A DNA stretch of 30,914 bases from a virus (Duplodnaviria > Caudoviricetes). The notes beneath the pieces were generated by a model. That model was not told the origin of the DNA. It did not search any database and saw only the letters and a program-made list of their open reading frames with translations. The translations under genes were made by a program, and so were the position numbers. The first letter of the stretch is position 1, and every line of letters begins with the position of its first letter. Of the stretch, positions 1,735 through 28,306 are shown in pieces. The stretch spans positions 1 through 30,914 of IMG/VR virus record IMGVR_UViG_3300008255_000336; one strand, written 5' to 3'.

Positions 1735-3150
1735 CTATCTGAGTTTGTCAAGGTTAGCAGTCAATGTGTGACTATTGCTACCGTTATTTAAAACGACACT
1801 CTCAGTAATAGATCCGCCTACGTAGATATTTTTAACAATCGAAGTGCCTCGCCATATTTTCACGTTGGCAATGTAACCGGTATAAGTGCCGGCCTCATCC
1901 TTCTCACAAGCAATACAGTATTGACTAATCACCTTACCGATTGCCGCACCTGTTAGAGCGATTCTTCTTGTGTGCCACTTACCCAAAGTATCGGCATTAT
2001 GAGCTACACTAGAGGTATGTACGCTCCTGCCGTTTTGATCTGTTAGTCCACTATCACGAAGCGTCCAACCGCTAGCAATAAGATCAAGGTTAATCTCTGC
2101 CCCTGAGTTATCCCAAAATAGATCGAACTCTACAAAGTCACCTGATACGATCGTGTAGTCTGAGACGTTAGTTAAATCAACATATCGGTAAGAGTTAGAA
2201 CCGGCGGCCATTGTGAAAACTCCCCTAATGACCTTATACATGAGATTCCAGATAGTACTCTCGATTTCTTCTGATAATACCTCTACCGTTGGTACTAGAG
2301 CTACATATTTTTTACACCTCAAAAATGTAGATGGTATCGGGTAAACCTTAGCAGAATTGACGGAATCCCAACCAAGCATAGCTACCGCACCGCCCCCATT
2401 TTCGTACCAGTTGTATTGAATCGACTTGATACCGTTCATGTTTACGTTAGCGCTTCTCTCTGTAGTACCCTGATCGACCCAGTTATCGACAATCAAAGAG
2501 CCACCAACGTATAGTCTTTGCCCGTCGTCAGATGAACAGTAAAAAGTAGTTGTGCCTAATCCGTCAGGCTTAACCCAACCCTGCCAATAAATAGATGTCG
2601 TATCAGTCTGATTTCCAACTCCGTTAATTGAAACAACACCACTACCCCAATTATGGCTAACGCTAGTATCGATCGTAGTACCCAAGAAGGTATTAAAACC
2701 TGTGCCGTCATAAATAAACGCCCTGAGTCCCACATCCATAACGGCGTCAATGTCGCTAGTATTGGTAGCGCTAGCAAGGCCGTAGTACATATAAATCAAC
2801 TGCTTAACGGTTGTGCTAGTAGTTGGTATCTTGACGTAGACTGTGGCTGTTGTACTAATTGTTTCGACCCAATGGGGGAGTATGTTACCTAATGGATCGG
2901 CGAATAAGAGATCGGATAGATCGCTATTCATCTTACCGGTATCGACTGTAAAAGTTACGGCTATCTGGTAGTCTGCTACTGCCTGATTTGAAACGCCGAC
3001 TAAAATAGGTCTGCGATAAGCACGACCACCAAGAAAACCGCCCCATCTACCATCGAAACTAAGCAACCACGGTACTAGGTTTTGATGGCCGATTCTGAAA
3101 CGGTCAGTTATTTTATTTCGTGATAATAGTTGTTTGCCAATTCTACCCAT
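1735..3150 (-). CDS. DUF2341 + PA14 domain virion/adhesin protein
   Basis: DUF2341-like YRRPI...DYQIAV...SDLLFAD...LPHWVE...VYVKIP...IYMYYG; PA14 signature SIYWQGWV...SDDGQRLYV...IVDNW...WYENGGGA. Confidence 0.75.
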   Translation of the reverse strand: MGRIGKQLLSRNKITDRFRIGHQNLVPWLLSFDGRWGGFLGGRAYRRPILVGVSNQAVADYQIAVTFTVDTGKMNSDLSDLLFADPLGNILPHWVETISTTATVYVKIPTTSTTVKQLIYMYYGLASATNTSDIDAVMDVGLRAFIYDGTGFNTFLGTTIDTSVSHNWGSGVVSINGVGNQTDTTSIYWQGWVKPDGLGTTTFYCSSDDGQRLYVGGSLIVDNWVDQGTTERSANVNMNGIKSIQYNWYENGGGAVAMLGWDSVNSAKVYPIPSTFLRCKKYVALVPTVEVLSEEIESTIWNLMYKVIRGVFTMAAGSNSYRYVDLTNVSDYTIVSGDFVEFDLFWDNSGAEINLDLIASGWTLRDSGLTDQNGRSVHTSSVAHNADTLGKWHTRRIALTGAAIGKVISQYCIACEKDEAGTYTGYIANVKIWRGTSIVKNIYVGGSITESVVLNNGSNSHTLTANLDKLR

Positions 3151-3151
3151 T

Positions 3152-3460
3152 TTATGCGATCTCTTTACCTGATATGTAGTAAGTAATAGCCGAAGCTGTA
3201 CCAGCTAATCCGGCTATTGTCTCACCAGCATCAAGTACTTGATCCATAAAAGGCAGAGTAATTGTGTCGTTTGCCTCTAGTGTGTGCTGATATAAAACCT
3301 CTGTGCCGGCTAGTTTAAGCGTGATAGTTGCATCTGTGCCGGTTTTATTGCACAAGGTAATAGCCTTAACTACTGCCTGAGTGCTGGCCGGAACTGTGTA
3401 CAATGTGCCTTCGGTTGCGGCTAGTGTACCTTTACAGAGTCTTTTATTAGTTACTGTCAT
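3152..3460 (-). CDS. Small beta-rich virion structural protein
   Basis: TLYTVPAS...VKAITLCN pattern common in phage tail modules; position. Confidence 0.55.
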   Translation of the reverse strand: MTVTNKRLCKGTLAATEGTLYTVPASTQAVVKAITLCNKTGTDATITLKLAGTEVLYQHTLEANDTITLPFMDQVLDAGETIAGLAGTASAITYYISGKEIA

Positions 3461-3462
3461 AA

Positions 3463-3651
3463 TTACATTGCTCCAAAGATGCTAACTTCCATCGGGTTTT
3501 TTGGTAGCCAAGCCGATGTAGCAGAATCATACTCGAGTAAGTCTCCATCTTCTATCGTACCACTAACAGATATACCACCACTAGCACCGTAGCGCTCTAG
3601 TTGATCTAGTCGCCTCTCAAGGTCTTTGATGATTTCTGTTGTTTCTTCCAT
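3463..3651 (-). CDS. Small tail-associated protein
   Basis: LERRLDQLER coiled coil then DGDLLEYDSATSAW fibre-repeat-like motif; overlaps the upstream stop. Confidence 0.55.
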   Translation of the reverse strand: MEETTEIIKDLERRLDQLERYGASGGISVSGTIEDGDLLEYDSATSAWLPKNPMEVSIFGAM

Positions 3652-4676
3652 TATTCAAACCCGATAGTAACTTGTATTGATGAACTTACCGACTTAATTG
3701 TCCTACTAATAACTCTCATTGCTTGGTCGATATCTTCTTCCTCAATTCTAACACCGACCGAATCACCCATCGAATAATCGGTTAGGTTAGGATCTCCGTC
3801 GATGTGTGTAACTGTTACGCTTCTGGTATCCTCTGGTGTGTCGTGATCTACCAAGAACTTGTCGCCACGATCGGCTAACTCTGCGGTATCTTCGACGCCT
3901 TTTTCTGAGAGAGTAGCTTCTGATAATAGCCAGTTAGGTTGATTGGTTGTGTCCTCTCGAACAGATGTAACCATGTCCTCCTCTGAACCCTTACCAAGTA
4001 CTGCTACTTTATTAAAGATGTTGCCGGCCATACTCTCGGTAACTGTCCAGTCGGTAGTATTTCGATTAGTGAAAATGACGTTAGGTTTAGATTGGCCTTT
4101 AGTTGGATAGTAAAAATTAAGTACTTTGTTTTGAGTGATCTCAAAGTCGTAGCCGTCTTTGAGTTTGTAGTTAGACATTCCTACCAGTAAATCAAGTAGG
4201 CTAGTGAATCGTAGAGTACGTTGTCGATTTTTAGTAGTTGGCTGAGTACCTAGAGTTAATCCGAAACTACCGTTAGTCTTTAATTGGCTGATGTTGATTT
4301 CATCCCAAGCAATTACGGCGCTATCTTCACTTGTGTACTTGAGGCCATCGTTACCGGTAATACGAGTATCAAGCATTGCCACGTAGTCACTAATGTAGAG
4401 AGTAACCGTACCACTTTTGCGATTCTGTTTTCTATTGAGTACTAGAGTGTGTAGTAGTGTGCCTTCTCGATAAACTTCGACCTCACGATAGACACCTTTT
4501 AACATTCCGTTGTAGGTTGATTTCAGAGCTTCGGCGTAGTCTTTGAGAGCTTGGTATGAGCAAGTAATAGAACCTTGCACACCACGGTTAAGAGCCTCGG
4601 TGAGCGTAAAATTGAGATGAGGGATATCGAAAACCTCAGTCCCGGCTAGATTCTTTAGTCTAAACTTGTACTCCAT
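3651..4676 (-). CDS. Baseplate hub / Tal-like minor tail protein
   Basis: Directly after Dit; NKVAVLGKG and DYSMGDSVGV...MRVI motifs. Confidence 0.7.
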   Translation of the reverse strand: MEYKFRLKNLAGTEVFDIPHLNFTLTEALNRGVQGSITCSYQALKDYAEALKSTYNGMLKGVYREVEVYREGTLLHTLVLNRKQNRKSGTVTLYISDYVAMLDTRITGNDGLKYTSEDSAVIAWDEINISQLKTNGSFGLTLGTQPTTKNRQRTLRFTSLLDLLVGMSNYKLKDGYDFEITQNKVLNFYYPTKGQSKPNVIFTNRNTTDWTVTESMAGNIFNKVAVLGKGSEEDMVTSVREDTTNQPNWLLSEATLSEKGVEDTAELADRGDKFLVDHDTPEDTRSVTVTHIDGDPNLTDYSMGDSVGVRIEEEDIDQAMRVISRTIKSVSSSIQVTIGFE

Positions 4677-4678
4677 AT

Positions 4679-5512
4679 TTATAGCCCTAAGTAGGCATCA
4701 AAGTAAGTGACGTCTGCGTGGGCTACTTGTGAAGTAGAAACCGTGCTAATTCTTAGCTGATTACTACCAGGCTGTAAACTCCACCAATCACCGGTGATGC
4801 TACTTAATACGTTAGTAATTCCGTTTTTAACGGCTGTCTCATTCTCAAAGTCAAAGTCGATGTAGTCACCAACTCCGAGAGACTCACTACACGATAAAGT
4901 CAAACCTAGAGTATCGTTTACTAAACCGAAACTAGACATATCGCCGTAGACTCTGATTGTTGGTTTCATCTCAGTATTACCAAGATTGACGAACTCTACA
5001 GACTGAGCGCCAGCGCCCACACTAATATCTACAGGCACACCAAAAGGCAAAGAGAAACCGCCACCGGTTGAGATGTAAACACTTTTAACTTTATCCTCAC
5101 CCTTCCAGTAGGGAGTTTTACCTTGCAATCCGATTGTTACGTAGGTGTAGCCCTTGCGATCGCCTTCATCACTTGAGGTAATAGAGGTAGTTACGACGTC
5201 AAGTTTCTTAGTTTTGCCGGCGTCTGTTACGAACTCCAACTCTTTAGTTTTCTGTGATCGATTAAGTGGCAACCTAAACAATTTAATCAAGTTATCTCTA
5301 TTGGTAGCTACTTCGGCCAAAGTATTGCCTTTAACCAAGATCTCGATAATAAGTGAGATGTTTGAGTAGTAGGGAGTGCCAAGAGATACACCGTCCTTAT
5401 TACCTGTTGAAAAGACATCGTGATCGATAGATGGGGCGTACCCCTTAGTGATTTTAGTAGGGGCGCACCAGCTAGTGAGAAAAGATGAACCGGCTATTTT
5501 TGCGCTTTGCAT
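4679..5512 (-). CDS. Distal tail protein (Dit)
   Basis: Follows tape measure; TPYWKG, NLGNTEMKPTIRVYG and WWSLQPGSNQL motifs. Confidence 0.8.
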   Translation of the reverse strand: MQSAKIAGSSFLTSWCAPTKITKGYAPSIDHDVFSTGNKDGVSLGTPYYSNISLIIEILVKGNTLAEVATNRDNLIKLFRLPLNRSQKTKELEFVTDAGKTKKLDVVTTSITSSDEGDRKGYTYVTIGLQGKTPYWKGEDKVKSVYISTGGGFSLPFGVPVDISVGAGAQSVEFVNLGNTEMKPTIRVYGDMSSFGLVNDTLGLTLSCSESLGVGDYIDFDFENETAVKNGITNVLSSITGDWWSLQPGSNQLRISTVSTSQVAHADVTYFDAYLGL

Positions 5513-5513
5513 T

Positions 5514-7499
5514 TTAGTACATTCCCCTTCTGCTTAGTGATATTGCTAACTGTTGATCGACTACTGCTAGGTCAAGATCATTATTGATCGTGTTTTGGAA
5601 AGTCACGTTATTAGTAGTCTCGTTACTTGTTTGGTTGGTTGGCGACAATGCTCTTGAGATATCAGACGAGTATTTAGGTACTACGATACTATCAAGAGTT
5701 GTTTGTACGCCGGTTTTGAGCATATCTAGGCGGTCGTTAATTGACGGTGAGTTTCTCTTATCCATGTCGAAGGCTTCGGCAATGGTAGAGCGAACTTTGT
5801 CGGCAATATCCTTAATAGTTTCCCAAGCTCTTTTAAATGGACTTGTGAGTTTGTCGTAGAGTTGATTACCAAGATCTGCGATCGAACTAACCCACCCTCT
5901 GATTTTATCGAGTACGTCATCGACCATCTTTTGAATCCACTTGATAATAGCCTCGACCATATCAGGGATAATAGAGTGACCGACCAACACATCCCAGAGG
6001 TTTTTAAAGAAGTCGATTATACCTTTGACGAAACCTTTAATAGCGTTGAGTACTGTTTGGATCATTCCACTTATTACATTCCAGATACCCTCGGCGGCTG
6101 TCTTTGTGGACTCCCAGACTTTTTTCCAATCACCGGTAAAGATACCGACGATAATACCCATAATGCCCTGTATAAACTGAGCCATACCGGTAAAGGTTTG
6201 AATGATGTAGGGGAGTGCCTCACTAAATGCGGTCATTATTGCTGAGAGTAAGCCTAGTACTAAGGTGATTACTCCGGCCAGTAAACCGGCTAAGATCTGC
6301 AAAGTATCAACCATAATCGGGCCGAGTGTTTGTAGTAACTCATCGATCATAGGCTTTGAATCTTCGAGAGCTGTTTTAAAGTTGTTGATTGCTGGCGATA
6401 GTAGTCTGAAAAATATATCTGATACACCAGTCAATAAACCTGCTAGTCTGCCCCATAGATCACCCCAATTATTTAGGCTGTCGCTATTAGCAAACATATT
6501 ATCGAAGCCCTGTTGTATCTGAGCGATGATGTCATTGAAGTTGTAGAACGTAATACTTACGTCGTCGATTCTCTCTTTAAAAGCGCCCCATTGACCGCTA
6601 ATGATTTCGAGATAACCCTTTAGAGTATCCATTGATCCGAATACACCGGTAAGTGATTCATTGACTGCCGATAGTGGAGACTCGGCGCTTTGTACCTTAC
6701 TAGCAAAGTTGCCAATTAAACCGCCCAATCTATCGAACACGTCTAGCGCTCTCTCTGCGATTGTGATAACTGCATCGAAAACAGGTTGTAGTTTTTGTAG
6801 TCCGTCGTTCTTTAGATTCTCGAGACGTGCTTTAAACTGCATTGCTTTAGCGGCTGACGATTCAATCTTACCGCCCATTTCTTCCTGCTTTTGTGCGCCC
6901 CATTCAGTAACGGCATTGAGTAGGGCAGTCTTACGCTCTGTGTCTGTTAATTCCTCGGAAGTTTTACCGAGGGCTTTAGCGGCGTTCTCGTAGACCTCGC
7001 CCATCTTTAAAGTGATACCTAAGTTATCCAAAATAAGCGGAGATGCACGACCCACACCAGTAACGATAGAGTCAAGCATATAGCCCACGTCCTCACCCAT
7101 TGCGACGGCCTGAGTCCTAGCAATTTCCATAAGTGACCCCATCTTGTCGATAGGGATACCAAGCATTGAGGCTTTAACCGATTGTTTCATAAGATCAGCG
7201 TTTGAGACTGTCTTGTCGGTCATGTTTTGGAACTGATCTAAAAAGTGCTGAGATGATTTGCCGGCGTTCTCTGATAACTTAGTAAAAGTATTTTGTACGT
7301 CGGTTAATCTACCTGCCTCCTCTGAAAACTTAACACTAGCGGCAGTTGCGGCCGCAAAACCTGCGACTGCTACACCGGCGGCCACTCCGATAGTTTTCAT
7401 ACTTAGACCGGCGTTCTCTGCTGATTTCTGCACCTTCTCAAAGCCTTTGCTGGCTTCGTCTTTTGCCTTGATGATGTATTGCAATACTTCTGTGTTCAT
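5514..7499 (-). CDS. Tape measure protein
   Basis: 661 aa Ala/Gly-rich helical protein; IKAKDEAS N-terminus, GRASPLILDNLGI motif, Trp/Phe periodic repeats, GHSIIPDMV; follows tail chaperone. Confidence 0.9.
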   Translation of the reverse strand: MNTEVLQYIIKAKDEASKGFEKVQKSAENAGLSMKTIGVAAGVAVAGFAAATAASVKFSEEAGRLTDVQNTFTKLSENAGKSSQHFLDQFQNMTDKTVSNADLMKQSVKASMLGIPIDKMGSLMEIARTQAVAMGEDVGYMLDSIVTGVGRASPLILDNLGITLKMGEVYENAAKALGKTSEELTDTERKTALLNAVTEWGAQKQEEMGGKIESSAAKAMQFKARLENLKNDGLQKLQPVFDAVITIAERALDVFDRLGGLIGNFASKVQSAESPLSAVNESLTGVFGSMDTLKGYLEIISGQWGAFKERIDDVSITFYNFNDIIAQIQQGFDNMFANSDSLNNWGDLWGRLAGLLTGVSDIFFRLLSPAINNFKTALEDSKPMIDELLQTLGPIMVDTLQILAGLLAGVITLVLGLLSAIMTAFSEALPYIIQTFTGMAQFIQGIMGIIVGIFTGDWKKVWESTKTAAEGIWNVISGMIQTVLNAIKGFVKGIIDFFKNLWDVLVGHSIIPDMVEAIIKWIQKMVDDVLDKIRGWVSSIADLGNQLYDKLTSPFKRAWETIKDIADKVRSTIAEAFDMDKRNSPSINDRLDMLKTGVQTTLDSIVVPKYSSDISRALSPTNQTSNETTNNVTFQNTINNDLDLAVVDQQLAISLSRRGMY

Positions 7500-7708
7500 T
7501 TTTTAGGTGGGGGGGTAGTTTTTACCTTGTCGGCTACCTCTCTCTGTTTTAAGTATAGCATGGTTAGATTGACAAACTCAGCCGGTAGTTTATCCAACTC
7601 GTCAGGGAAACAATTAAAAATACGGCAAAGGTGTACTTGCTCGAACTCTTGCGGAAGGGGGTAACTTTCGTAACGGAAAAACTTAAAGAGATCTACTTCT
7701 TTTTTTTT
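7496..7708 (-). CDS. Tail assembly chaperone gpT-like extension reached by -1 frameshift
   Basis: A AAA AAG slippery heptamer before the gpG stop; -1 frame reads KEVDLFKFFRYESYPLPQEFEQVHLCRIFNCFPDELDKLPAEFVNLTMLYLKQREVADKVKTTPPPKK and stops overlapping the tape measure ATG (ATGA). Confidence 0.85.
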   Translation of the reverse strand, partial: KKKEVDLFKFFRYESYPLPQEFEQVHLCRIFNCFPDELDKLPAEFVNLTMLYLKQREVADKVKTTPPPKK

Positions 7709-8064
7709 CCGGATTGCATCTTCTCTCTTGTGTCATTGTAAACTTTGACACAATAGTTAAAGATAGGCTCAAATTGATCGGCGTCTAGCTCATCGATGAT
7801 AGAGTTAATTTCGTCTTGATTCTCAACTACTGAGTCACCGCTAACGATCTTTTGAATCATCAAAGGCACGAAGTAGTCCTCAACCTTAGTCATAATATCA
7901 GCGCCAAACTCTAAGCTGGCCGCCTTTAATTCTTTATCTTCGAGACTCGCACCAATCTTACCGAACTCTTGTAATTGTCTGCGATCTGCCTCACGATAAA
8001 CACGCCACGTTAATTTTTCTCTAACGTGTATCTCATATTTGCCGATGTTGAAAACTTTAGCCAT
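7693..8064 (-). CDS. Tail assembly chaperone (gpG-like)
   Basis: Between tail tube and tape measure; ends GKKKK on an A9 run; SD-like AAAAGGA upstream. Confidence 0.85.
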   Translation of the reverse strand: MAKVFNIGKYEIHVREKLTWRVYREADRRQLQEFGKIGASLEDKELKAASLEFGADIMTKVEDYFVPLMIQKIVSGDSVVENQDEINSIIDELDADQFEPIFNYCVKVYNDTREKMQSGKKKK

Positions 8065-8101
8065 TGTGTCCTTTTGTCTATTTTGTTTTTAACTACTAAT
8101 C

Positions 8102-9055
8102 TTAGTAACTGCTTGTTTGGTTAGTCAGTTTAAACTCGTCATAGTGACTGCCTGTTTCGCTGAAAGATTCGAGAGTGATAGGCAATAAAGCCGCACCTTC
8201 GCCGACTTGAGCTAATTCGCCGGTGATAATCTTACAGTTAGGTAGTCCGATATTTAAAGCTGGGTTACTTCCAGTACCGATAGTCTCAGAGCCTACGACA
8301 TCTAAGTCGATTCTTTGAGTTGTGTTGTTTAACATTTCTTGGTACTTAGCGGCTACTGTTGCGTCTAAAATGGCCTCAATGTTGATCTTGACGGTTGAGC
8401 CATTGTTCACTAAGGTATCAGCCTCTTTACTACCGTTTAAAGTAGGGATCAAAGCTAATCCTGAGTTATGCTCTAGCTCAATCTTAGTGATTTGGTCAAA
8501 GACTGCGCTAGCAATTTGGATTGATAAGTTATCGAATACGAAGCGACCAGATGTAGGAGCAACCGGGGTGACGGGTGATGAGGTTACATTACCGGCGGCC
8601 ATTACCTCAGTCTCGAGAGAGATAGCGGCTTGACCTGCTTCTGCGATAAGTTTAAAGACGTTGAAAACTGCACCAGAGAATCGGCGAGTAAGTGATCCGA
8701 ACTTCTGCTCAATGGTGTAACTTTGTTTGGTTAATGCTTCTGCGAAGTCATGCTCGTAAACTGCTGACTCTCCGCCTTTTAGAGCGCTAGTAACGTCTCC
8801 AAGTGCTGACAAGAATACATAACCGGCTAATTCGTGGAAAAGGTCTAATTTGTAGCTACCCTCATGTTTTCTAACACCTTGTAGGATTACGTTAGTTTGA
8901 GCTTGGGTAGATCTTAATTCGCTCTTAGCTTCTGCTGATGGATCGGTAGAGATACCACCTTCACGAGCAATAGGTAATTGAATCGATGGCACAACTGCGG
9001 TGTTGTAGGTTGATTCTTTACCGATGATGACGTGATCTAAGAGTGAGCTTGACAT
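8102..9055 (-). CDS. Major tail tube protein
   Basis: GKESTYNT N-terminus, YEHDF...SYTIEQ...RRFSG motifs; size and position. Confidence 0.85.
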   Translation of the reverse strand: MSSSLLDHVIIGKESTYNTAVVPSIQLPIAREGGISTDPSAEAKSELRSTQAQTNVILQGVRKHEGSYKLDLFHELAGYVFLSALGDVTSALKGGESAVYEHDFAEALTKQSYTIEQKFGSLTRRFSGAVFNVFKLIAEAGQAAISLETEVMAAGNVTSSPVTPVAPTSGRFVFDNLSIQIASAVFDQITKIELEHNSGLALIPTLNGSKEADTLVNNGSTVKINIEAILDATVAAKYQEMLNNTTQRIDLDVVGSETIGTGSNPALNIGLPNCKIITGELAQVGEGAALLPITLESFSETGSHYDEFKLTNQTSSY

Positions 9056-9061
9056 ATATCC

Positions 9062-9250
9062 TTATTTTACGTATTCAAAGAGAGGGTTGTCAATGGTAGC
9101 GTCGGTATCGAAAGTTTCACCGGGCTTAACTACTCTCCCTAAGATTGATACATTCACCGGCATAGTGCCGATGTACTTATACTTGTGGGAGTTTCCCTCA
9201 AGTTTAGGCTTTTCGATTTTTGGTAACTTATTAGAGTTATTTTTTGCCAT
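9062..9250 (-). CDS. Small hypothetical protein preceding tail tube
   Basis: YKYIG...VKPGETFD pattern; TGnTATATT lies 6 nt before the ATG. Confidence 0.6.
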   Translation of the reverse strand: MAKNNSNKLPKIEKPKLEGNSHKYKYIGTMPVNVSILGRVVKPGETFDTDATIDNPLFEYVK

Positions 9251-9269
9251 ACTATCAATATACCATAAA

Positions 9270-9695
9270 TTAGCGGTTAGCGATAATCTCTACATCCACC
9301 TCTATAAAATCAACTCTCATATCCTCGGTGGTTAAGTCTGAGTCTCTACCTGATTTGACACAAACAGTACTGAGTACTGTACCGCCCAGAGTAGGATCTG
9401 AGTCAATGGCGTTTACGATTTCTTGAATGACAACATCTGAGTCGTTGGCCGCTTGTGCATTATCACCGCCGGCTACAAAAGTACGAATAACAAAGTGTAA
9501 TACTCGTCTATTGGCCGCAGTACTGTAAATGCCATTATCAAAACCGTTATGCTCGATACCGGCCGCCGGTTTTGGTGATACTTCGTTAGGCTCGATTGAA
9601 TCAACGACGTTTTTAAGTGCTTTGTTACTGTCGTTTTTTAGAGTAGTGAGGATTGCTGTTAGCGATGTCCTGATGTCAGTAATGAAGTCGGTCAT
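9270..9695 (-). CDS. Tail terminator/completion protein
   Basis: Position; DPTLGGTV motif. Confidence 0.7.
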   Translation of the reverse strand: MTDFITDIRTSLTAILTTLKNDSNKALKNVVDSIEPNEVSPKPAAGIEHNGFDNGIYSTAANRRVLHFVIRTFVAGGDNAQAANDSDVVIQEIVNAIDSDPTLGGTVLSTVCVKSGRDSDLTTEDMRVDFIEVDVEIIANR

Positions 9696-10078
9696 ATACT
9701 GTTCAGTATATCACGCATCGCTTGTCTAAATGAATCGGTGATATACTTACGATTTCGCTCAATAGCAGTAAGTAAGAACCTCTTAGGCTTAATGTACCTA
9801 GTACCCATTTCTTGATATTTTGCGTAGTGAACTTTAGACCCGACCTTAGCTGTTACATTGCCACCGCTACCGGTTGGCTTACCGTCAGACCTAGCATACT
9901 GAGTGATCGATCGACGTAGAGTACCGGACTTAACCGGGGCTATTTGAGTACCCTCACCAGATATTTTAATCACCGCTTTAGTTAAAACTTTAATAGCGGC
10001 CTTTTCCTGAGCCGTGCTTAGCTTCTGCATTTGACGAGCTACTTTACTCCAGTCTGGGGGAATTATATTGATGCTCAT
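9692..10078 (-). CDS. HK97 gp10-like tail component
   Basis: APVKSGTLRRSI...YAKYQEMGT...PKRFL signature. Confidence 0.85.
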   Translation of the reverse strand: MSINIIPPDWSKVARQMQKLSTAQEKAAIKVLTKAVIKISGEGTQIAPVKSGTLRRSITQYARSDGKPTGSGGNVTAKVGSKVHYAKYQEMGTRYIKPKRFLLTAIERNRKYITDSFRQAMRDILNSI

Positions 10079-10413
10079 ACCTTTATAGTATCAGGTTTTG
10101 GTTTGTAGACCGCAAGCTGATAGCTAAAAGATCCGCCGAGCTGATGCTTTTCAATAATGCTAGTAATGATGTAATAGTCTGTTGGATCGCTGGCGTTCTC
10201 AATCTTGTAGCCGTCTCTGATATCCATATCTCTAGCATCTTGAAAGTACACGTTAAAGGGAGCGCCAATACTTGCGTCAAAAGGGGCAATCGATGACATT
10301 CCGGCCGGCTCGATGTAACCCTCAATAATATAAGTGTGAGTTGCCTCGATCTTATCTTCTCTGGCCGCATCATCACGGACTCGTCGGTAAACTTTTAGTT
10401 GAGTGCTATACAT
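10075..10413 (-). CDS. Head closure protein
   Basis: Position between adaptor and gp10-like gene; size. Confidence 0.65.
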   Translation of the reverse strand: MYSTQLKVYRRVRDDAAREDKIEATHTYIIEGYIEPAGMSSIAPFDASIGAPFNVYFQDARDMDIRDGYKIENASDPTDYYIITSIIEKHQLGGSFSYQLAVYKPKPDTIKV

Positions 10414-10954
10414 AGTAGATCGTTTGAGCCTCGATAACCTGCTGGATATTGACCGGCAAGTTTTCTTTAATCATGTAGTTGTTTTGCGATGTGCCTCTAG
10501 CCTCTGAGCTAGTTTGTTTACCGTCGGTATTTCTAGCACCGTAGAGCAATAACACCCACTCGATTAAGGCTTGCTTAACGTCAGCCGGTATAGTCTCACC
10601 TTTGAAAACTACTTTATAGTAACCATGCAATGCGTAGGCAAACTTGATAAGTACACCTCTGAGCATATAGTCGGCAGAATCAATGACTGTGTAGGCTTCG
10701 CTACCAAAGTCACTCAAGTAAGATACGCTTGTGATTGATGTAGGTCTAATTGGCAGATCGATAGTGTCTTTACCTTCGATCTCCATTTCTTCGGTGAACT
10801 CAGTATTAGCATTGTCTGAGAATCGACGACCGTTAGTCATTCTCTCAAACATTTTCTCTACTGCACCACATAAGCGAGTTAGCTCTGTTTGTTGAGCCGT
10901 CTCGTAGGTTTTACCGTTGTAGGCCGAGATATCGGTATGAGCTATAAGTGACAT
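10406..10954 (-). CDS. Head-tail adaptor/connector
   Basis: LPIRPTSITSV and IPADVKQALIEWVLLLY motifs; follows capsid. Confidence 0.75.
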   Translation of the reverse strand: MSLIAHTDISAYNGKTYETAQQTELTRLCGAVEKMFERMTNGRRFSDNANTEFTEEMEIEGKDTIDLPIRPTSITSVSYLSDFGSEAYTVIDSADYMLRGVLIKFAYALHGYYKVVFKGETIPADVKQALIEWVLLLYGARNTDGKQTSSEARGTSQNNYMIKENLPVNIQQVIEAQTIYYV

Positions 10955-10970
10955 AGGTTAATAATAACAT

Positions 10971-11001
10971 AAAAAAAGGCCACCCGGTTAGAGTGGCCTT
11001 T
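10971..11001 (-). terminator. Intrinsic terminator after capsid operon
   Basis: Minus strand AAAGGCCAC-loop-GTGGCC followed by T7. Confidence 0.8.
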
Positions 11002-11021
11002 CGATTTCAAGTTAAAAAAAC

Positions 11022-11213
11022 TTATTTAATAGCTTTTGCAATTCCAGCATCAACTAATTTTTTAGCCTCTTTAGTGTTGAAACCTGCAACATCACCTACG
11101 ATGTAGGGAGCGTGAGGTTTAACGAATCTAACGGCGATCAATTTAGCCATCTGCTTAACGGTTTTAGCGCTAGCCTTAGGATCTTGTGGCTTTTGGTCTT
11201 TATTGTTTGACAT
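11022..11213 (-). CDS. Small capsid-adjacent protein
   Basis: VRFVK...GDVAGF...AKKLVDAGIA, typical of small post-capsid phage ORFs; GAAAGGA SD. Confidence 0.65.
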   Translation of the reverse strand: MSNNKDQKPQDPKASAKTVKQMAKLIAVRFVKPHAPYIVGDVAGFNTKEAKKLVDAGIAKAIK

Positions 11214-11240
11214 TGTTAATGTGTCCTTTCGTCTGTTACA

Positions 11241-11266
11241 GGGGGCGATAGGTTTCTACCGCCCCC
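11241..11266. terminator. GC-rich hairpin downstream of major capsid gene
   Basis: GGGGGCGGTAG-AAAC-CTATCGCCCCC on minus; the T-rich tail is on the plus strand only. Confidence 0.5.
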
Positions 11267-11288
11267 CTTATTTTTTACTAACTATTGA

Positions 11289-12392
11289 CTATTTTACCAG
11301 AGTCAAGAATTGAGCGGCCTCGGTCTGAGCGAGTTTACCGTCCCATCGTTTAACTGCTTTCATAGCAGTTTGATGTTTCTTGAAGGTATCACCAGCGACG
11401 TTAGAGGTTTCGACGATCATGCCTGATTTCTCAGCGATCATGTAACCGGCCAAGTCTGTGAACCATAACTCGGATGAGTCAGTACCAGCGCCCAAGTTTT
11501 CAGGGATTGAAGTAGACTCGATGATTGGACGACCAAAGAGTAAACTAACTCCGCCCTCAGTCTTAGGCATATAGAGGATTGGCTGACTGTCAGCATCTTT
11601 TAATTTAGCCAATAAGCGCATTACTGCGTTAGAGGTAATAAAGATACCATTCATACGACGATCTCTTTCGAGACTGTAGTACAAATTGACTACGTCATCG
11701 TAGACAAGGTTAACGCCAGCCATTGCGATACCAGTAATACCGGCAGATCGCAAACCGGAAGGCTGACCAAAACCAGAGCCACCGATAATCATAGTTTCAT
11801 CGTCTTTGCGGAAACCTTTAGCGAATAATTTAGAGAGGAACTCTAAGACCCCAACGCCGGCATCTTCTAGCAATTCCCTAGACATTTCTGTATAGGCAAT
11901 AGCTTTATGCACGTTGTAAGTCACTTGACCGAAAGTTGGAGAGCTACCGGTTGGAGTGGTATTTTCGCCTGGTCTTTCGATGGTTACGCCGTCGCCCTCT
12001 TTAGGCATTTCACCTTGTCCGGAGACAGTAGGTAAGACGGTACAGTACTTACGAAGGTCATTGACGTTTTCTCTCTTTTCCATGACACGAGCTTCAAACT
12101 CGGTAGGAACGAGATAGCCACCGTTGGCGTCTGTACCCTCAGAGAGAGCTTTAGCCTCGATGGTAGCGTGATCGCCAAGAACGAGAGCCTTAAAGAAGGC
12201 TGTTTCTCTTTCAACGCCTTTTAATACTTCTGAGACTTCGGCCTTAGCGTTGGTTGGCACGACATCTTTAGCTTTAGCCTTAGCGTGTTCGACTTCTTTG
12301 TCGAGCTGTTCGGCTACTGCTTTTCTGGCCGCTTCACTTGCGGCATCGGAAACGACGGCTTTCAAGTCGTCGAGAGTGATTTCTTGTGGCAT
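11289..12392 (-). CDS. HK97-fold major capsid protein
   Basis: GGYLVPTEF, MSRELLEDA, GSG..QPSGL, LKDADSQPI, LFGRPI motifs; AAGGAG SD. Confidence 0.95.
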   Translation of the reverse strand: MPQEITLDDLKAVVSDAASEAARKAVAEQLDKEVEHAKAKAKDVVPTNAKAEVSEVLKGVERETAFFKALVLGDHATIEAKALSEGTDANGGYLVPTEFEARVMEKRENVNDLRKYCTVLPTVSGQGEMPKEGDGVTIERPGENTTPTGSSPTFGQVTYNVHKAIAYTEMSRELLEDAGVGVLEFLSKLFAKGFRKDDETMIIGGSGFGQPSGLRSAGITGIAMAGVNLVYDDVVNLYYSLERDRRMNGIFITSNAVMRLLAKLKDADSQPILYMPKTEGGVSLLFGRPIIESTSIPENLGAGTDSSELWFTDLAGYMIAEKSGMIVETSNVAGDTFKKHQTAMKAVKRWDGKLAQTEAAQFLTLVK

Positions 12393-17980: not shown

Positions 17981-18173
17981 AACCCCTTAGATAATTGTAG
18001 GGTAGGCGAACGCTCACCGATGCGATCCAAGTAAATAGTAACGCTAACCAGTTATGAGTAGTCAGCCAAACCCCAATAGCTCCTACTAAAAACATTACAA
18101 AATTAAATACGCTTAGACCTTTACTGATAGAGACGTATTGCTCGATTGTTAGTTTAGTTAATTTTTTGCTCAT
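17952..18173 (-). CDS. Small two-TM membrane protein
   Basis: Two hydrophobic segments. Confidence 0.55.
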   Translation of the reverse strand: MSKKLTKLTIEQYVSISKGLSVFNFVMFLVGAIGVWLTTHNWLALLFTWIASVSVRLPYNYLRGYDGKQKKDS

Positions 18174-18777
18174 GGCTTCCTTTCAGCATTGCGTCGAATA
18201 CCCAACGGCCAATATCAGGATATACGCAGTTTCTTAGTACCTGACGCTTATTTTTAATTTCTTTATAGCTCGCAATTTTAAGACCGTGTAACTGTTCTAA
18301 CTCTGATATTTTGAATAAGTCTCGATGATTTTTAAACTTTACCTCGAGTGGTGGTATCTCAAAATTAGACCAAAAGTTATGACGCTTAATAAAAGCGTTA
18401 GGCTCAATCAATGGTTTGTAGTATGGTTTGACGTTCTCAACCACCCATAGACCGTTAAAGTTATGTTTTAAGAAAATGATCTCTTGATAGAGTTTCATGT
18501 CCGGATAGACTGGCTTAGTACCTCTAAACCTTACGTTGATGTTTTGTCTAAAATTAGAGTGACTCTGACATGGTGGACTCGCCCATATAAAATCAAACTC
18601 GTTAAAATGATCTAGTAGGAATTGGTGAGCATCGCCTACCACTACTTGATCGTTAATAAAATTATCTTGATATGCTTTTGCGATATTCTCGTCGTGTTCA
18701 ACTGCTACAACTTCGTGATCCTCTCCCCAGAGTTTACGATTGCCACCAATACCAGCGTAAAGATTAAGTATTCTCAT
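18154..18777 (-). CDS. C5-cytosine DNA methyltransferase, short phage type
   Basis: LYAGIGG (motif I), SPPCQ (motif IV), ENV (motif VI). Confidence 0.9.
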   Translation of the reverse strand: MRILNLYAGIGGNRKLWGEDHEVVAVEHDENIAKAYQDNFINDQVVVGDAHQFLLDHFNEFDFIWASPPCQSHSNFRQNINVRFRGTKPVYPDMKLYQEIIFLKHNFNGLWVVENVKPYYKPLIEPNAFIKRHNFWSNFEIPPLEVKFKNHRDLFKISELEQLHGLKIASYKEIKNKRQVLRNCVYPDIGRWVFDAMLKGSHEQKIN

Positions 18778-22406: not shown

Positions 22407-22442
22407 ACAGTAATTAAAGCACATTATTTATATGATTGTCAA
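22407..22442 (-). promoter_or_regulatory. Sigma70-type promoter, conserved phage motif copy 1
   Basis: TTGACA-18 nt-TTTAAT, within AATGTGCTTTAATTAC. Confidence 0.75.
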
Positions 22443-22443
22443 G

Positions 22444-22857
22444 CTATGCTTTATGACTCTCTTTGACTCCTAAGTTTGAGTCTACTAATGTTAGTTTTGT
22501 ACCTGCCGGCTGAGACTTTAACCAATCTTTAGCCAGCTTCCACTTGAGACGCCATGTATCGGTCGGGTATCCCTTTACTTCGACGTACTCTAACGACTCG
22601 TCTTTATGGTGGATCAAAAAGTCGAGTTTGTAACTAGCTACTCTCGTTTTGTTTATCCCGTAGAGATCGATAGCTACTTGGCGATTATAGCCTATTATGC
22701 GTTTCAGTCTAACGTCATCATCAAGAATAAGCGAGTACTCATACTCTAGTTTTGAGTCAAAAGTACCTTTGTAACTCTTTACCTTGCTAGCGTTAAACTT
22801 ATTACCTACTGAGTTTTTTCTAGTTTGATTAAACTTAGAAAACTTTAGCATTGTCAC
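22444..22857 (-). CDS. DUF1064-family PD-(D/E)XK nuclease
   Basis: NKFNA...FDSKLE...YKLDF...VEVKG...WRLKWKL signature. Confidence 0.85.
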   Translation of the reverse strand: MTMLKFSKFNQTRKNSVGNKFNASKVKSYKGTFDSKLEYEYSLILDDDVRLKRIIGYNRQVAIDLYGINKTRVASYKLDFLIHHKDESLEYVEVKGYPTDTWRLKWKLAKDWLKSQPAGTKLTLVDSNLGVKESHKA

Positions 22858-23549: not shown

Positions 23550-23782
23550 TCTCTGATAGCCTTTCGTTGGTACTTTTTATAATTACGATCTATTTCAATG
23601 CTTGTAGCAGAGTGCATTTTTAGTATTTTCTTTATCTGTAAGTCGGTATCATCTACCACCTGCTCATCAACTTTGCCGATAGCTTCTAACGAGATTACTC
23701 TAGTGAGTAAGCCCGTTAGATTGCTATTAAGGTTCATTGAGTTAATTAAATGTTGAGTTAGTACGTCGCTATATTTAGACAT
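23546..23782 (-). CDS. Hypothetical protein
   Basis: Coupled to upstream gene. Confidence 0.55.
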   Translation of the reverse strand: MSKYSDVLTQHLINSMNLNSNLTGLLTRVISLEAIGKVDEQVVDDTDLQIKKILKMHSATSIEIDRNYKKYQRKAIRE

Positions 23783-25724
23783 AGTATCCTTGCGCTCTAA
23801 TTAGATCTCTCTCGCCGGGTTTCATAATCAAGCAATCACCATTACCTAACAATCGCTCTGCTCCGGTCTGATCTAACACAACCTTTGAGTCGATACTGGT
23901 TGAAACCATGTAGCAGACACGAGTAGGTAGGTTAGCTTTAAATGATCCTTTGATGACGTCTACACTTGGCCTCTGAGTAGCTAGGATTAAGTGAATACCG
24001 CTAGCCCTAGACTTCTGAGCCAATCTAACTAACATCATCTCGATTTCTTCTGCATAAGAGCGTTTGTAACTTTTCTCTTTGCCGTCGAGTTCTTGCTTTT
24101 CGACGTAGTTGTCTGGGTTCTGCAAAATGTCTGCCAACTCATCAACTACTATAACTACTCTGCTCATCTTAGTTTGTGCAATACTTTTTACTTTACGTCG
24201 TTTTAACTCGATGTAGCGTTGCTCCATGAGATCGACCATAGATGTTAATAACTTGTGGATATCTCCAATTTCAGAGTACACACCTCGTACACACTTCTCG
24301 CCCTCTAAGTGAGAAAACTCTGTGCGCTTTGGATCGACTAGGTGAAGTTGCAAACTGTTATTACTGTTCTGTTGAATTAAGGTGGTTATCATTGCCTCGA
24401 GTCCTATTGACTTACCGCTACCGGTTGCGCCGGCTACGAGTACATGAGGGGCAGACTCTAGGTTAATTGATACCTTATTCTTGTAAACGTCCTCACCTAC
24501 TGGCATTATCAACGATCGGTTATTTTCTAACTCTGGCAATTTAACAAAGTCTTGTTTTTCGTTTGAGAGTTCGATACCGACGTATTGAGTACCGGGAATT
24601 GGTGAGATTATGCGAGCTGACATACTGCCGGTAGCTTGCATCACATCAGGCTCGTGTTTTTGTAAGCTAGCCATCTTCACACCAACGCCGGGTAAGAATC
24701 GATACAATGTGGCGCTTGATCCCTTGAATTGATCGACATACTGTAGGTTTTGGCCGAAGTCTTGTAGTTTAACGATTATTTTCTCGTGAGGCTCTTTAGC
24801 TTCCATTACTGCGGTGTTAGCAATAGATGGCTCGAATTGCTTAGCCTGTACCTGCATGAGTGGTGACTTATTGACGATCTGAGGCATAACCAAGTCGTCG
24901 AGTGAGTCTTTGCGGTACTCCTCCCACACCTTACCGCCGAGCATACGATCCATAAAGTTAGGTTTAAACACTTTGTTAGGATTCGATAGATCGATGATGA
25001 TTGTGTCGTAAAGGTTTAAAAATACCTGTTTCCAGTCGTTAGTTTTCTCAAAGTCAATATAGATGAGGTTTGTTTGTTTACCGCCGTTACGATTCACGCT
25101 TGGCTTAATCTCAAAGAAGTAATAACCTCTCATCGGTCGGCCATACTTAGCCAACATAGCGAAGTAGTTAGCGGCCGCCTGTAGATTGTATTTTGCAAGT
25201 GAGACGTGATCGTCGCTTGTCTGTAGGTCTGCTTTAGTCTCTGTGAGAGATCGAGTAGTTTTCCAATCCCAACCGTAGATCTCGCCGTCAATCTCAGTAA
25301 CAAGGTCAGTAATTGCTTTAATTGGTACGGGAGACATCACACCGTCGCCGGTGTCAAAGTTGGCCGTGTTCTCTACCTCAGCGCCGATAACCTTACCGAC
25401 ACTTGGTAACTCGTTAGTGAAAAACTTAACTAGGTTTGCTAACTCTGCTTTACACTTATCACGTGATCCGGTTTTACCCCAATCGATTTTAGATGCTGGT
25501 CGCTCGTCGATTATCTGAATAGCGTCGGCCATTGCGATATCGTGGGCTACACCCTTAAACATCATCTCTGCGTATTTGTGGAAGGCAGAGCCGACTAACA
25601 TAGACGGTGTGCCTAAAAACAAGTCGTATCGGCTCTCAATGTATTTTAAAAACCAAGCATACTCATTGTTAGCATAGAGCGACATTGAGCTGTAGCTTAG
25701 GTGTTCGATTGGTAAAGTGTTCAT
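23775..25724 (-). CDS. PD-(D/E)XK (RecB/Cas4-like) nuclease fused to FtsK/SpoIIIE-type ATPase
   Basis: N-terminus LSYSS...GSAFH...E...IKAITDLV...DWKT; C-terminus ARIISPIPGTQYVGIELSN, PHVLVAGATGSGKS, LVDPKRTEF, VIVVDELADIL, RLAQKSRASGIHLILATQRPS, GAERLLGNGD. Confidence 0.9.
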   Translation of the reverse strand: MNTLPIEHLSYSSMSLYANNEYAWFLKYIESRYDLFLGTPSMLVGSAFHKYAEMMFKGVAHDIAMADAIQIIDERPASKIDWGKTGSRDKCKAELANLVKFFTNELPSVGKVIGAEVENTANFDTGDGVMSPVPIKAITDLVTEIDGEIYGWDWKTTRSLTETKADLQTSDDHVSLAKYNLQAAANYFAMLAKYGRPMRGYYFFEIKPSVNRNGGKQTNLIYIDFEKTNDWKQVFLNLYDTIIIDLSNPNKVFKPNFMDRMLGGKVWEEYRKDSLDDLVMPQIVNKSPLMQVQAKQFEPSIANTAVMEAKEPHEKIIVKLQDFGQNLQYVDQFKGSSATLYRFLPGVGVKMASLQKHEPDVMQATGSMSARIISPIPGTQYVGIELSNEKQDFVKLPELENNRSLIMPVGEDVYKNKVSINLESAPHVLVAGATGSGKSIGLEAMITTLIQQNSNNSLQLHLVDPKRTEFSHLEGEKCVRGVYSEIGDIHKLLTSMVDLMEQRYIELKRRKVKSIAQTKMSRVVIVVDELADILQNPDNYVEKQELDGKEKSYKRSYAEEIEMMLVRLAQKSRASGIHLILATQRPSVDVIKGSFKANLPTRVCYMVSTSIDSKVVLDQTGAERLLGNGDCLIMKPGERDLIRAQGYYV

Positions 25725-25758
25725 ATATCCCTTTTTTGTTTATTACTAATTTGTCTGT

Positions 25759-25793
25759 ACTGTAATTAAAGCACATTAAAATTAGCTTTGCAA
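25759..25793 (-). promoter_or_regulatory. Sigma70-type promoter, conserved phage motif copy 2
   Basis: TTGCAA-17 nt-TTTAAT, within AATGTGCTTTAATTAC. Confidence 0.75.
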
Positions 25794-26870
25794 CTGTGAT
25801 TTTAAATCGTTAATTAAGTCTAGTAACTGTTGGTCGCTTAGATCTTTAATCGACTTGATACCTAGTATTTTTTTCTGCTCCTCGTGAGTGCGTTTTAGGC
25901 TTTTGAGCATACCGAAATAGGTATTTAACATCCATTGACGATCGAATCCGCCGTTATCTTGTACACTCTTAGCTTTTGTATCTTGAGGTGTTTCGTTGAT
26001 TACTTGTGCATCTTGTACACTTTCGGCCGGTTTGTTTCGATTCATCTTTTTAGCCACAAAGTCATTGACGTTGTTTTGAGTGGCCGGTGATCCTTCCGGT
26101 GATCCGTCGATTACCACATCGTCAGGTGTGTTGTCTGGGTAGTCCAATCTATCGCCATCGACTACGGCCTGATCCGCTACTTGAGCCTTAGACATTGCAA
26201 CGCTCATCGGTGCGTACTTAGATAACAGAGTTTTTAAAACTGTTTTCTTTGCCATAGATTCAAAGTCATCAACCCATAGGCCGTAACCTTTGCGGAATGA
26301 CTTAGAGAATCGTTTACCGTGCTTTTGTAGTTGAGGGATTGATTGATAGTATTGTTTATTAAAACCGTTAGACAATTCCATATAGGCAACGTAGCCGATT
26401 GTTACTGCCTTCTCTCTAGCCTCATCCTCTAACCACTCGAAGATCATATCGCCAGTTAATCGATTGACGCCTTTAATTTCGCCCTCTTTAACATCGGTGA
26501 CGTTTAACTTAGCAAACTCACCGGATCTCATGGCTAATTGAATAAAACCCTTATAGCCGATCTGAAACTGTGCGATCTGAGTACCGCCCTGATTCTTGTC
26601 TTTGTAGGGAATGATATAAGCAAAGCCGAGGTTTTGATTGATTGGTAAATCGAGAGTTGCGGCCAATAAACAGGCAGACATTACACTCTTTTTGTCAGCC
26701 TCTTTTAAGATGTGATTGCTATTCACCAATGAAACAACCGAAGTAATAAACTGTTGGCTACGAGCGCCTAGAGTTTCCTCGATCATTTTTCTAGTAACGT
26801 CTTGGCTCATGTACTGAGCGATTGAGACTTTGGGGTCTATTGTGGCCGGGAGATTGTTATTTTTTGTCAT
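25782..26870 (-). CDS. recT: RecT-family single-strand annealing recombinase (start reassigned to ATG 26870)
   Basis: LGFAYIIPY, AQFQIGYKGFIQLAMRSG, MAKKTVLK.LLSKYAPMS; GAAAGGA SD before ATG 26870. Confidence 0.92.
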   Translation of the reverse strand: MTKNNNLPATIDPKVSIAQYMSQDVTRKMIEETLGARSQQFITSVVSLVNSNHILKEADKKSVMSACLLAATLDLPINQNLGFAYIIPYKDKNQGGTQIAQFQIGYKGFIQLAMRSGEFAKLNVTDVKEGEIKGVNRLTGDMIFEWLEDEAREKAVTIGYVAYMELSNGFNKQYYQSIPQLQKHGKRFSKSFRKGYGLWVDDFESMAKKTVLKTLLSKYAPMSVAMSKAQVADQAVVDGDRLDYPDNTPDDVVIDGSPEGSPATQNNVNDFVAKKMNRNKPAESVQDAQVINETPQDTKAKSVQDNGGFDRQWMLNTYFGMLKSLKRTHEEQKKILGIKSIKDLSDQQLLDLINDLKSQLQS

Positions 26871-26908
26871 GTGTTCCTTTCGTTTATAATTTGTCTGAAT
26901 CATAACTA

Positions 26909-26942
26909 AATGTAATTATAGACTATTATAGATCGTTGTCAA
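26909..26942 (-). promoter_or_regulatory. Sigma70-type promoter upstream of recT
   Basis: TTGACA-16 nt-TATAAT followed by TACA, as in the other early promoters. Confidence 0.6.
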
Positions 26943-27659: not shown

Positions 27660-28271
27660 TTAGACCTCCTGATAACTTTTATACTTAGTACCCCACTTAA
27701 TAGCTTCGTCGTATGTGTTGAAAAATAAATCGAATCTGGCCTCGCCTTTAATAGATCCGCCCACATCTTCACAAGTGACGACTCCTACCCCTTCGATCTC
27801 GAATTGTTTACCGAGGTACTTAGCAGGGCAGGCTACAGTTTTTAAGTGTCTTGGAGTTGTGCCGGTAGCTGTTCTACCGTTTACTGAGTTTTTTAAGCTA
27901 GGGCAGTTCATGGCTATTTGATCCTCTGTCATCGTAGGATCGCAAGTATAAGCCGTGATTTTAGCTAACTGCTTAACCGGTGGCTCGATCGGGAGTTGCA
28001 CCACATTTTCGGACTCGTCTACTGTGACGTTAGCCCGCAAGTCACCGGTTAAACCGTCAGCGTCAGCACGTGGTAAAAATTGAGACTCGTAGTTTTCAGG
28101 TAATGGACTTAATAGCTCTACTGGTTGGTTGTAGTAAATTGAGTAAGCGATTGTCAGTCCTACTAAAAAGCCGGCAATAGAGACGCCGATTAAAATTAGT
28201 TTTCTTAGGTTGCCTACTGTGAGAATAAGTGAGTCAGTAATAAAGATTACTTGATGTTGTTCTTTTGTCAT
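27660..28271 (-). CDS. Membrane-anchored 3D-domain (MltA-like) cell-wall enzyme
   Basis: N-terminal TM; ITAY...TATG...VACP...CEDVGGSIKG..RFDLFF...AIKWG signature. Confidence 0.85.
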   Translation of the reverse strand: MTKEQHQVIFITDSLILTVGNLRKLILIGVSIAGFLVGLTIAYSIYYNQPVELLSPLPENYESQFLPRADADGLTGDLRANVTVDESENVVQLPIEPPVKQLAKITAYTCDPTMTEDQIAMNCPSLKNSVNGRTATGTTPRHLKTVACPAKYLGKQFEIEGVGVVTCEDVGGSIKGEARFDLFFNTYDEAIKWGTKYKSYQEV

Positions 28272-28306
28272 AATGTAATTAAAGCATATTATGTCGGTTG
28301 GTGCAA
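28272..28306 (-). promoter_or_regulatory. Sigma70-type promoter, conserved motif copy 3, predicted leaderless
   Basis: TTGCAC-17 nt-TTTAAT-6 nt-ATG, within AATATGCTTTAATTAC. Confidence 0.8.

Follow-up and report, generated by a model that had tools for sequence, protein, structure and literature searches.

Phage annealase pairs underlie recombineering. These pairs, which include Rac RecE-RecT, lambda Exo-Red beta, YqaJ-RecT and DUF3799-RecT, place a RecT/Red-beta annealase beside a same-strand PD-(D/E)XK nuclease, and those characterised use a passive exonuclease (PMC8093625). The locus described here lies in the IMG/VR virus record IMGVR_UViG_3300008255_000336 (Caudoviricetes), whose complete length of 30,914 bases is the window analysed, and its recT likewise adjoins a nuclease with a RecE-like fold. 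In this case, however, the nuclease does not stand alone: it forms the N-terminal part of a polypeptide of 649 amino acids (aa) that also carries a complete FtsK ATPase. With moderate confidence, this protein can be read as an ATP-driven DNA-end resection enzyme feeding the neighbouring RecT annealase. The parts are all known; as far as seen, their combination within a phage annealase module is undescribed. No published description of a nuclease-FtsK fusion was found in a search outside which supplements and most subscription papers lay, and a brief earlier mention is possible; term searches of the accessible text of PMC10853773, PMC7824862, PMC8093625, PMC13490951, PMC4158269, PMC6563490, PMC5512222 and PMC5704561 returned none. 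Specifically, “translocase” and “fused” gave no match in the main text of PMC8093625 as available, nor did translocase, SpoIIIE, ATPase or fusion in the available part of PMC13490951.

Like the window protein, the HerA-NurA system of archaea and some bacteria combines a ring motor of the FtsK-HerA type with a nuclease acting at DNA ends, and it has been described as a resection complex (PMC3326311). HerA-NurA, however, comprises two proteins, NurA being an RNase H-like toroidal dimer, and its partner is Mre11-Rad50, whereas here a RecB-type domain is joined in cis to a true FtsK alpha-beta motor and the neighbour is an annealase. In AdnAB, AddAB, RecBCD and the UvrD-PF12705 helicase-nucleases, a RecB-family nuclease is tethered to an ATP motor, its active site being placed where the DNA leaves the enzyme (PMC3321194, PMC5704561), the AddAB nucleases sitting at channel exits (PMC3321194). 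Those enzymes are driven by a superfamily 1 (SF1) helicase and work with RecA, whereas the present protein has a ring-type translocase of double-stranded DNA, an N-terminal nuclease without an iron-sulphur cluster and, presumably, RecT as its partner. Finally, cellular FtsK/SpoIIIE and stand-alone phage FtsKs (e.g., mycobacteriophage Omega gp203) share the alpha-beta motor, Walker motifs, arginine finger and DNA-binding loop II; the fusion differs from them in its N-terminal nuclease, its relaxed loop I and its lack of membrane and gamma domains. The two genes and their parts are arranged as follows.

23775..25724, minus strand: nuclease-FtsK fusion gene, 649 aa, a single open frame
24909..25724, minus strand: RecB/RecE-type PD-(D/E)XK nuclease domain, aa 1-272 (PF12705, conservation, fold searches, and a model with a predicted local distance difference test score, pLDDT, of 92.7)
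24810..24908, minus strand: linker, about aa 273-305, predicted flexible (pLDDT below 50 at 274-277 and 279-305)
24561..24812, minus strand: FtsK alpha domain, aa 305-388, the DNA-exit ring in FtsK (PF17854; PMC7321959)
23778..24560, minus strand: FtsK beta RecA-like ATPase, aa 389-649, with no gamma domain after it (Pfam, alignment, conservation)
25725..25781, minus strand: gap of 57 bp between recT and the fusion, with one copy of an 18-nt repeat at 25761-25778
25782..26870, minus strand: RecT annealase, 362 aa, with RecT core, acidic tail and predicted-helical C-terminal segment (PF03837, phrog_148, TIGR00616, alignment)

An initial annotation, made from the sequence alone, had described one open reading frame joining a PD-(D/E)XK nuclease to FtsK alpha-like and RecA-like motor domains with intact Walker A/B and ATQRPS motifs, directly downstream of recT, without a membrane anchor and ending before any gamma domain. 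Each of these points holds. Pfam places PDDEXK_1 at aa 8-241 (E 5e-13), FtsK_alpha at 305-388 (E 2e-10) and FtsK_SpoIIIE at 402-588 (E 7e-30), and the motor retains Walker A (432-439), Walker B (D528-E529), the arginine finger (R573) and ATQRPS (582-587). Neither FtsK_gamma nor FtsK_4TM matches the fusion among the 11 Pfam families listed for the window; the highest 19-residue hydropathy is 1.1, and hence no membrane helix is present. The C-terminus coincides with the end of the alignment to P. aeruginosa FtsK alpha-beta, and all 136 fusions evaluated have at most 30 residues after the motor, versus a median of 112 in cellular FtsK. The gene for RecT (PF03837, E 1e-40; TIGR00616 above its cut-off) lies upstream on the same strand. 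An AlphaFold model built from 41 sequences (pLDDT 86.8; predicted template modelling score 0.55) consists of two well-folded parts separated by a low-confidence linker at 274-305. The motor is 31-32% identical to FtsK alpha-beta (E 3e-31) versus 12% to HerA, and against the FtsK equivalog model the fusion scores 181 bits versus a cut-off of 1566. The nuclease contains H49, E116, D140, D153-x-K155 and Q182, and C91 is the only Cys within aa 1-272, which leaves no iron-sulphur cluster of the four-Cys kind that defines Cas4 and iron-staple nucleases.

The window comes from one virus record of metagenomic origin, and an assembly artefact had been named at the outset as one of the findings that would undo the annotation. 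The chance that the gene is dead, or that faulty assembly or gene calling produced the fusion, is nevertheless practically nil; relatives, bridging contigs and low ratios of nonsynonymous to synonymous substitution (dN/dS) rule it out. There are 45 full-length relatives (clusters) at 29-98% identity, both domains occur in 99 of 265 collected proteins, and the linker between nuclease and motor is spanned by contigs of two other studies (X5 record 17, 24609-26942; X9 record 21, 24582-24972). Two IMG/VR scans yielded at least 105 distinct contigs with the fusion, forming 36 clusters at 70% identity and 11 at 50%; these counts are lower bounds because each scan gives its best 80 matches only (151 loci, 17 dropped as duplicate contigs). 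In the nuclease-targeted viral scan, all of the best 80 loci were fused, and the ESM Atlas adds several clusters, viral for the most part, in which these three domains recur. Across 118 fusions dereplicated at 80%, E116, D140, D153, K155 and Q182 are invariant in 116-117, the remainder being gaps, and all 118 retain K438 of Walker A, E529 of Walker B and the arginine finger R573. The family motif Q-x3-Y is looser: Q182 occurs in 117 of 118, with Y at +4 in 42 and N in 49, and the window itself has N at this position and Y one residue later. Values of dN/dS ranged from 0.01 to 0.21 for the nuclease (estimable in 8 of 13 pairs) and from 0 to 0.22 for the motor (11 of 13). Both halves are under purifying selection and look active.

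The fusion is absent from cultured phages, none of 50,697 records covering 80% of the protein. A nuclease profile matched 23 of 401 Patescibacteria and 6 of 301 Bacteroidota genomes, none of the matches being fused, and an IMG/VR scan with a single nuclease protein as query returned no matches. A full-alignment scan of GTDB retrieved cellular FtsK only, with 0 of the best 80 matches fused; covering 1 of 64 parts, it is uninformative on prophage range. Four rows of the ESM Atlas (4, 6, 8 and 12) are mostly bacterial clusters (Myxococcota, Nitrospirota, Cyanobacteriota) with a PDDEXK-FtsK architecture. In one homologue of 984 aa (P0167), Walker A is interrupted midway by about 290 inserted aa, the ends of which look intein-like. 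Three others (P0181, P0187, P0240) show Trp at several sites where Gly is otherwise invariant, a pattern that would arise if genes in which TGA encodes Gly (code 25) had been translated with code 4; this may hint at Gracilibacteria/Absconditabacteria hosts.

The strongest functional evidence is the linkage to annealases. The initial annotation had proposed a survey of co-occurrence with recT, and in that survey homologues proved tightly annealase-linked: an annealase lies beside the fusion in 101 of 105 IMG/VR contigs (83 upstream, 18 abutting downstream), and the other four have at most 92 bp of upstream DNA before the contig ends. Counted by cluster, the linkage holds in 35 of 36 at 70% identity and in 11 of 11 at 50%. 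The same-strand, adjacent annealase of RecET/Red modules is therefore present, whereas in place of their stand-alone, ATP-independent 5'-3' exonuclease for double-stranded DNA there is a nuclease fused to an intact ATPase. Three annealase subfamilies occur beside the fusion, namely RecT proper (phrog_148), a Bet/Red-beta-like group (phrog_252/2780, Pfam RecT) and phrog_561/4171, the last recognised by PHROG matches only (E 2e-5 to 3e-20; one member Pfam-scanned, with no match). Subfamily names come from independent libraries, and the count is partly circular since the three detection profiles were built from fusion neighbours. The same profiles, whose coverage excludes Erf, Sak and Sak4, matched 0 of 80 cellular FtsK loci and 0 of 29 viral loci whose FtsK lacks the nuclease; of these 29, five are cut at the 5' end and two of those are probably truncated fusions. 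A metagenome scan (best 80 loci: 75 fused, 4 cut, 1 motor-less) found an annealase at 71, the other nine having less than 1.3 kb upstream; it overlaps the IMG/VR set, includes a window-identical contig and is thus not independent. Adjacency persists when the annealase is replaced or the gene order flipped, whereas the rest of the neighbourhood is free to vary. Among 148 same-strand neighbours of at least 130 aa, drawn from 30 of the 36 clusters, Pfam recognised no second YqaJ, PDDEXK or RecE-type nuclease; the other nucleases there were two DEDD exonucleases, two HNH proteins and one endonuclease VII. Linkage to an annealase with no second exonuclease seen nearby suggests that the fusion fills the exonuclease slot of RecT modules as outlined in the available part of PMC8093625, and that it works with the annealase in some way is very likely.

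The annealase tails give a lead, and no more, on direct binding between annealase and nuclease. Eight RecT-type tails share an LxMGxL-like word with two Bet-type tails (L025, L029), the partner fusions being of the same subgroup, and across 249 cross-family pairs, which are not independent, tail similarity tracks the partner (rho 0.21 for the nuclease, 0.26 for the motor) over the annealase core (0.10). The largest Bet-type groups have almost no tail. A motif shared by the RecT tails of the window and of one relative (L003) was not accepted, scoring z 7.2 by shuffling and E 0.32 by BLASTP.

Two other gene families recur around the fusion. A gene of 150-220 aa, often with a CxxC start (cluster c4; e.g., L001:8940-9389, L047:8887-9552), lies near it in 28 fetched loci, some of which are the same contig, and has no match in the window. 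Likewise, GroEL-like chaperonin genes (cluster c29, five loci; e.g., L001:10272-11855, L077:10864-12357) are found within 3-5 kb of the fusion in phages of 30-40 kb.

With respect to origin, a FastTree phylogeny of 194 motors, sampled among best matches, places 116 of the 118 fusions in one split (0.89) and joins all 118 to eight phage FtsKs that are short and unfused (0.998), with cellular FtsK separate. The simplest account would be that a RecB-type nuclease was fused once to a phage FtsK motor. Five of those eight relatives (L055, L057, L058, L079, L080; about 5800-11300) lie within about 2 kb of Mre11/Rad50-like genes, an assignment based on domain scans at two loci and on matching gene sizes and order at three. 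These five short motors, from larger phages, stand just upstream of a primase-type gene and recall HerA-Mre11-Rad50 operons. Other phage FtsKs (L050, L065, L032, L060; about 2600-8500) adjoin a tyrosine recombinase, with a ParB-like gene in three of the loci, and are likely dimer-resolution modules of plasmid-like phages. By analogy, the fused motor could serve phage DNA segregation, concatemer resolution or branch migration, its nuclease acting at junctions or forks and not at ends. Domain and PHROG scans of the window, a genome estimated to be 93% complete, recognised no helicase, primase or replication initiator (and no integrase), as might suit such a role. Only a slim chance is given to it, however: the recombinase-linked FtsKs are unfused and separate in the tree, the fusion has no gamma domain, anchor or conserved recombinase neighbour, and a resolvase-like gene is encoded separately.

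If the protein is instead a resection enzyme, what is known of FtsK suggests how it might work. FtsK alpha-beta hexamers form on DNA without gamma, and DNA travels from beta to alpha, leaving through the alpha ring (PMC7321959, in part). With the nuclease tethered to the alpha N-terminus, it would sit at the exit face. In this scheme the FtsK part would assemble as a ring around a DNA end and drive the duplex, in the beta-to-alpha direction, towards the nuclease domains tethered to it; these would degrade one of the two strands, giving RecT single-stranded DNA to anneal. Loading at ends and not at FtsK orienting polar sequences (KOPS), cutting coupled to ATP, a 5'-strand polarity and hand-off to RecT would all belong to it, and the phage may use it for replication that depends on recombination, to circularise its DNA or to repair that DNA once cut. 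Domain order and annealase linkage fit the motor-driven resection proposed in the initial annotation (PMC7321959, in part), and the nuclease carries RecB-family motifs I-III (E, D, D/E-x-K) and the corresponding fold, with E116, D140, D153 and K155 matching AddB E915, D944, D961 and K963 (PMC3321194). Its nearest structural matches include motor-coupled nucleases: 3L0A, an uncharacterised exonuclease, leads with Z 17.6, AdnA follows with Z 17.0 (root-mean-square deviation, rmsd, 3.7; 235 aligned), and AddB (13.2) and lambda Exo (9.7) come lower. In Foldseek, ACE1, AdnAB and MGME1 rank ahead of RecE, which has a template modelling (TM) score of 0.37 versus 0.59 for AdnA. In sequence, the nearest cellular matches are C-terminal nuclease domains of proteins of 920-1120 aa, three of which, in our judgement, show a UvrD-like motif.

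Several findings nonetheless weigh against motor-driven resection. To begin with, E. coli RecE, an exonuclease that works without a motor, is as close a structural match as AdnA (Z 16.1, rmsd 3.6, 206 aligned), and on the modelled structure the fold does not decide whether the nuclease needs a motor. Moreover, three motor-less copies keep all catalytic residues, so that the nuclease can evidently persist alone: L251 (L251:4435-5268; 277 aa), on a 6.1-kb phage-like contig that has recT 1.9 kb upstream; P0269, a relative of L251 at 80%; and L313 (L313:1459-2358, G148:C1), the sole strong motor-less copy from the search of 401 and 301 genomes, which is surrounded by housekeeping genes in a Patescibacteria-phylum chromosome, 20 kb of which contain neither annealase nor motor. 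These copies, together with the predicted flexibility of the linker, would suit an autonomous RecE-like exonuclease serving RecT, with the motor an accessory for speed, end finding or stripping of end-bound proteins that is dispensable for cutting. Such an enzyme is unlikely, although it deserves to be taken seriously. Motor-less forms are rare (none among the best 80 viral loci, and one among the 76 metagenome loci that could be evaluated), L251 is nested among the fused copies in a nuclease phylogeny (FastTree, a single outgroup), suggesting loss of the motor and not ancestry, and the ATPase is invariant in 118 of 118 fusions.

Further counter-evidence comes from the motor, the neighbourhood and the HerA-NurA precedent. 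In FtsK, loop I (K657, R661) grips one strand and loop II (R632, K643) the other (PMC7321959, in part). Mapped by alignment to P. aeruginosa FtsK alpha-beta, these positions correspond in the window to S610/K614 and R585/K596, respectively. Both loop II residues are basic in 116 of 118 fusions. At the R661 position, 58 of the 118 have a basic residue, compared with all 54 cellular FtsKs and 21 of the 22 from phages that lack the fusion; of 93 columns that unfused FtsK conserves, just two are retained less often. In 34 of the 118 both loop I residues are non-basic, a state found in 0 of 54 cellular FtsKs, and in two both are basic. Outright loss of loop I was rejected, as 84 of 118, the window included through K614, keep at least one. 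A relaxed loop I would suit a motor relying mainly on one strand, and would also suit one that is simply a weaker pump. Most of the 148 neighbours have no Pfam match, leaving room for an unrecognised second exonuclease. Finally, the initial annotation's appeal to HerA-NurA as an established resection pair stands only in part, since a 2026 study reports that T. kodakarensis HerA-NurA cuts both strands and doubts its role in resection (PMC12977600, in part).

That study also lends some colour to a processive destroyer of both strands, used like some HerA-nuclease complexes for host chromosome breakdown or exclusion of competing elements, with annealase adjacency reflecting only an early-gene module. 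The motor does match the SspH, MADS and HerA defence models, and six nuclease domains per ring might reach both strands. This role is improbable, however: the defence matches cover the generic motor only, the adjacency survives the annealase swap and order flip noted above, and three sampled fusion loci (L011, L015, L193) carry integrase genes, temperate phages presumably having to spare host DNA. To return to resection, a more specific version of it is possible but distinctly tentative, in which a one-polypeptide FtsK ring with six RecB-type nucleases at its exit face and one relaxed staircase would track mainly one strand, split the duplex and recruit any RecT/Red-beta annealase bearing a matching short tail motif.

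The source appears to be an uncultured, siphovirus-like phage, the window containing genes for terminase, portal, prohead protease, HK97-type capsid, tape measure and Dit; almost every gene is encoded on the minus strand. The best matching datasets for the stretch are aquifer and activated-sludge metagenomes, and no RNA dataset is among those listed as containing it. Two further features belong to the setting of the recT-fusion pair.

26915..26942, minus strand: perfect sigma-70 consensus TTGACA-16-TATAAT (12/12 match) ahead of recT, the likely promoter of the pair
22444..22857, minus strand: DUF1064/Holliday-junction-resolvase-like gene in the same early region (PF06356, E 5e-9; phrog_190, E 5e-15)

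Sigma-70-type sites are no commoner across the window than in shuffles (10 versus a mean of 15.9). The recT start at 26870 is preceded by AAGGA, which resembles a ribosome-binding site, and the longest frame begins at 26903. Similarity to the relative X5 runs from the first base of the promoter consensus (26942) to the fusion stop (23774-5), with unlike sequence outside, and this single run suggests that the pair moves as a cassette. The resolvase-like gene is a possible pathway partner. The 18-nt intergenic repeat occurs in three minus-strand copies (22409-22426, 25761-25778, 28274-28291; 0.05 expected by chance) and may be a phage promoter or operator. Elsewhere in the window are a short C5-methylase-like open reading frame (18154-18777) and one with a 3D domain (27660-28271).

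FtsK is the fastest translocase known, at up to 17.5 kb/s (PMC7321959, in part). If the more specific version, with a ring tracking mainly one strand, is true, these phages would possess an ATP-powered, very fast recombination module and, with it, a new kind of part for recombineering with double-stranded DNA. The two-gene cassette, of about 3.1 kb, is easily expressed and assayed. A natural single-gene fusion of pump and nuclease, retained next to an annealase by 36 or more phage lineages, provides a testable case of a double-stranded DNA pump turned end-processor, and it bears on the disputed role of HerA-type motor-nucleases.

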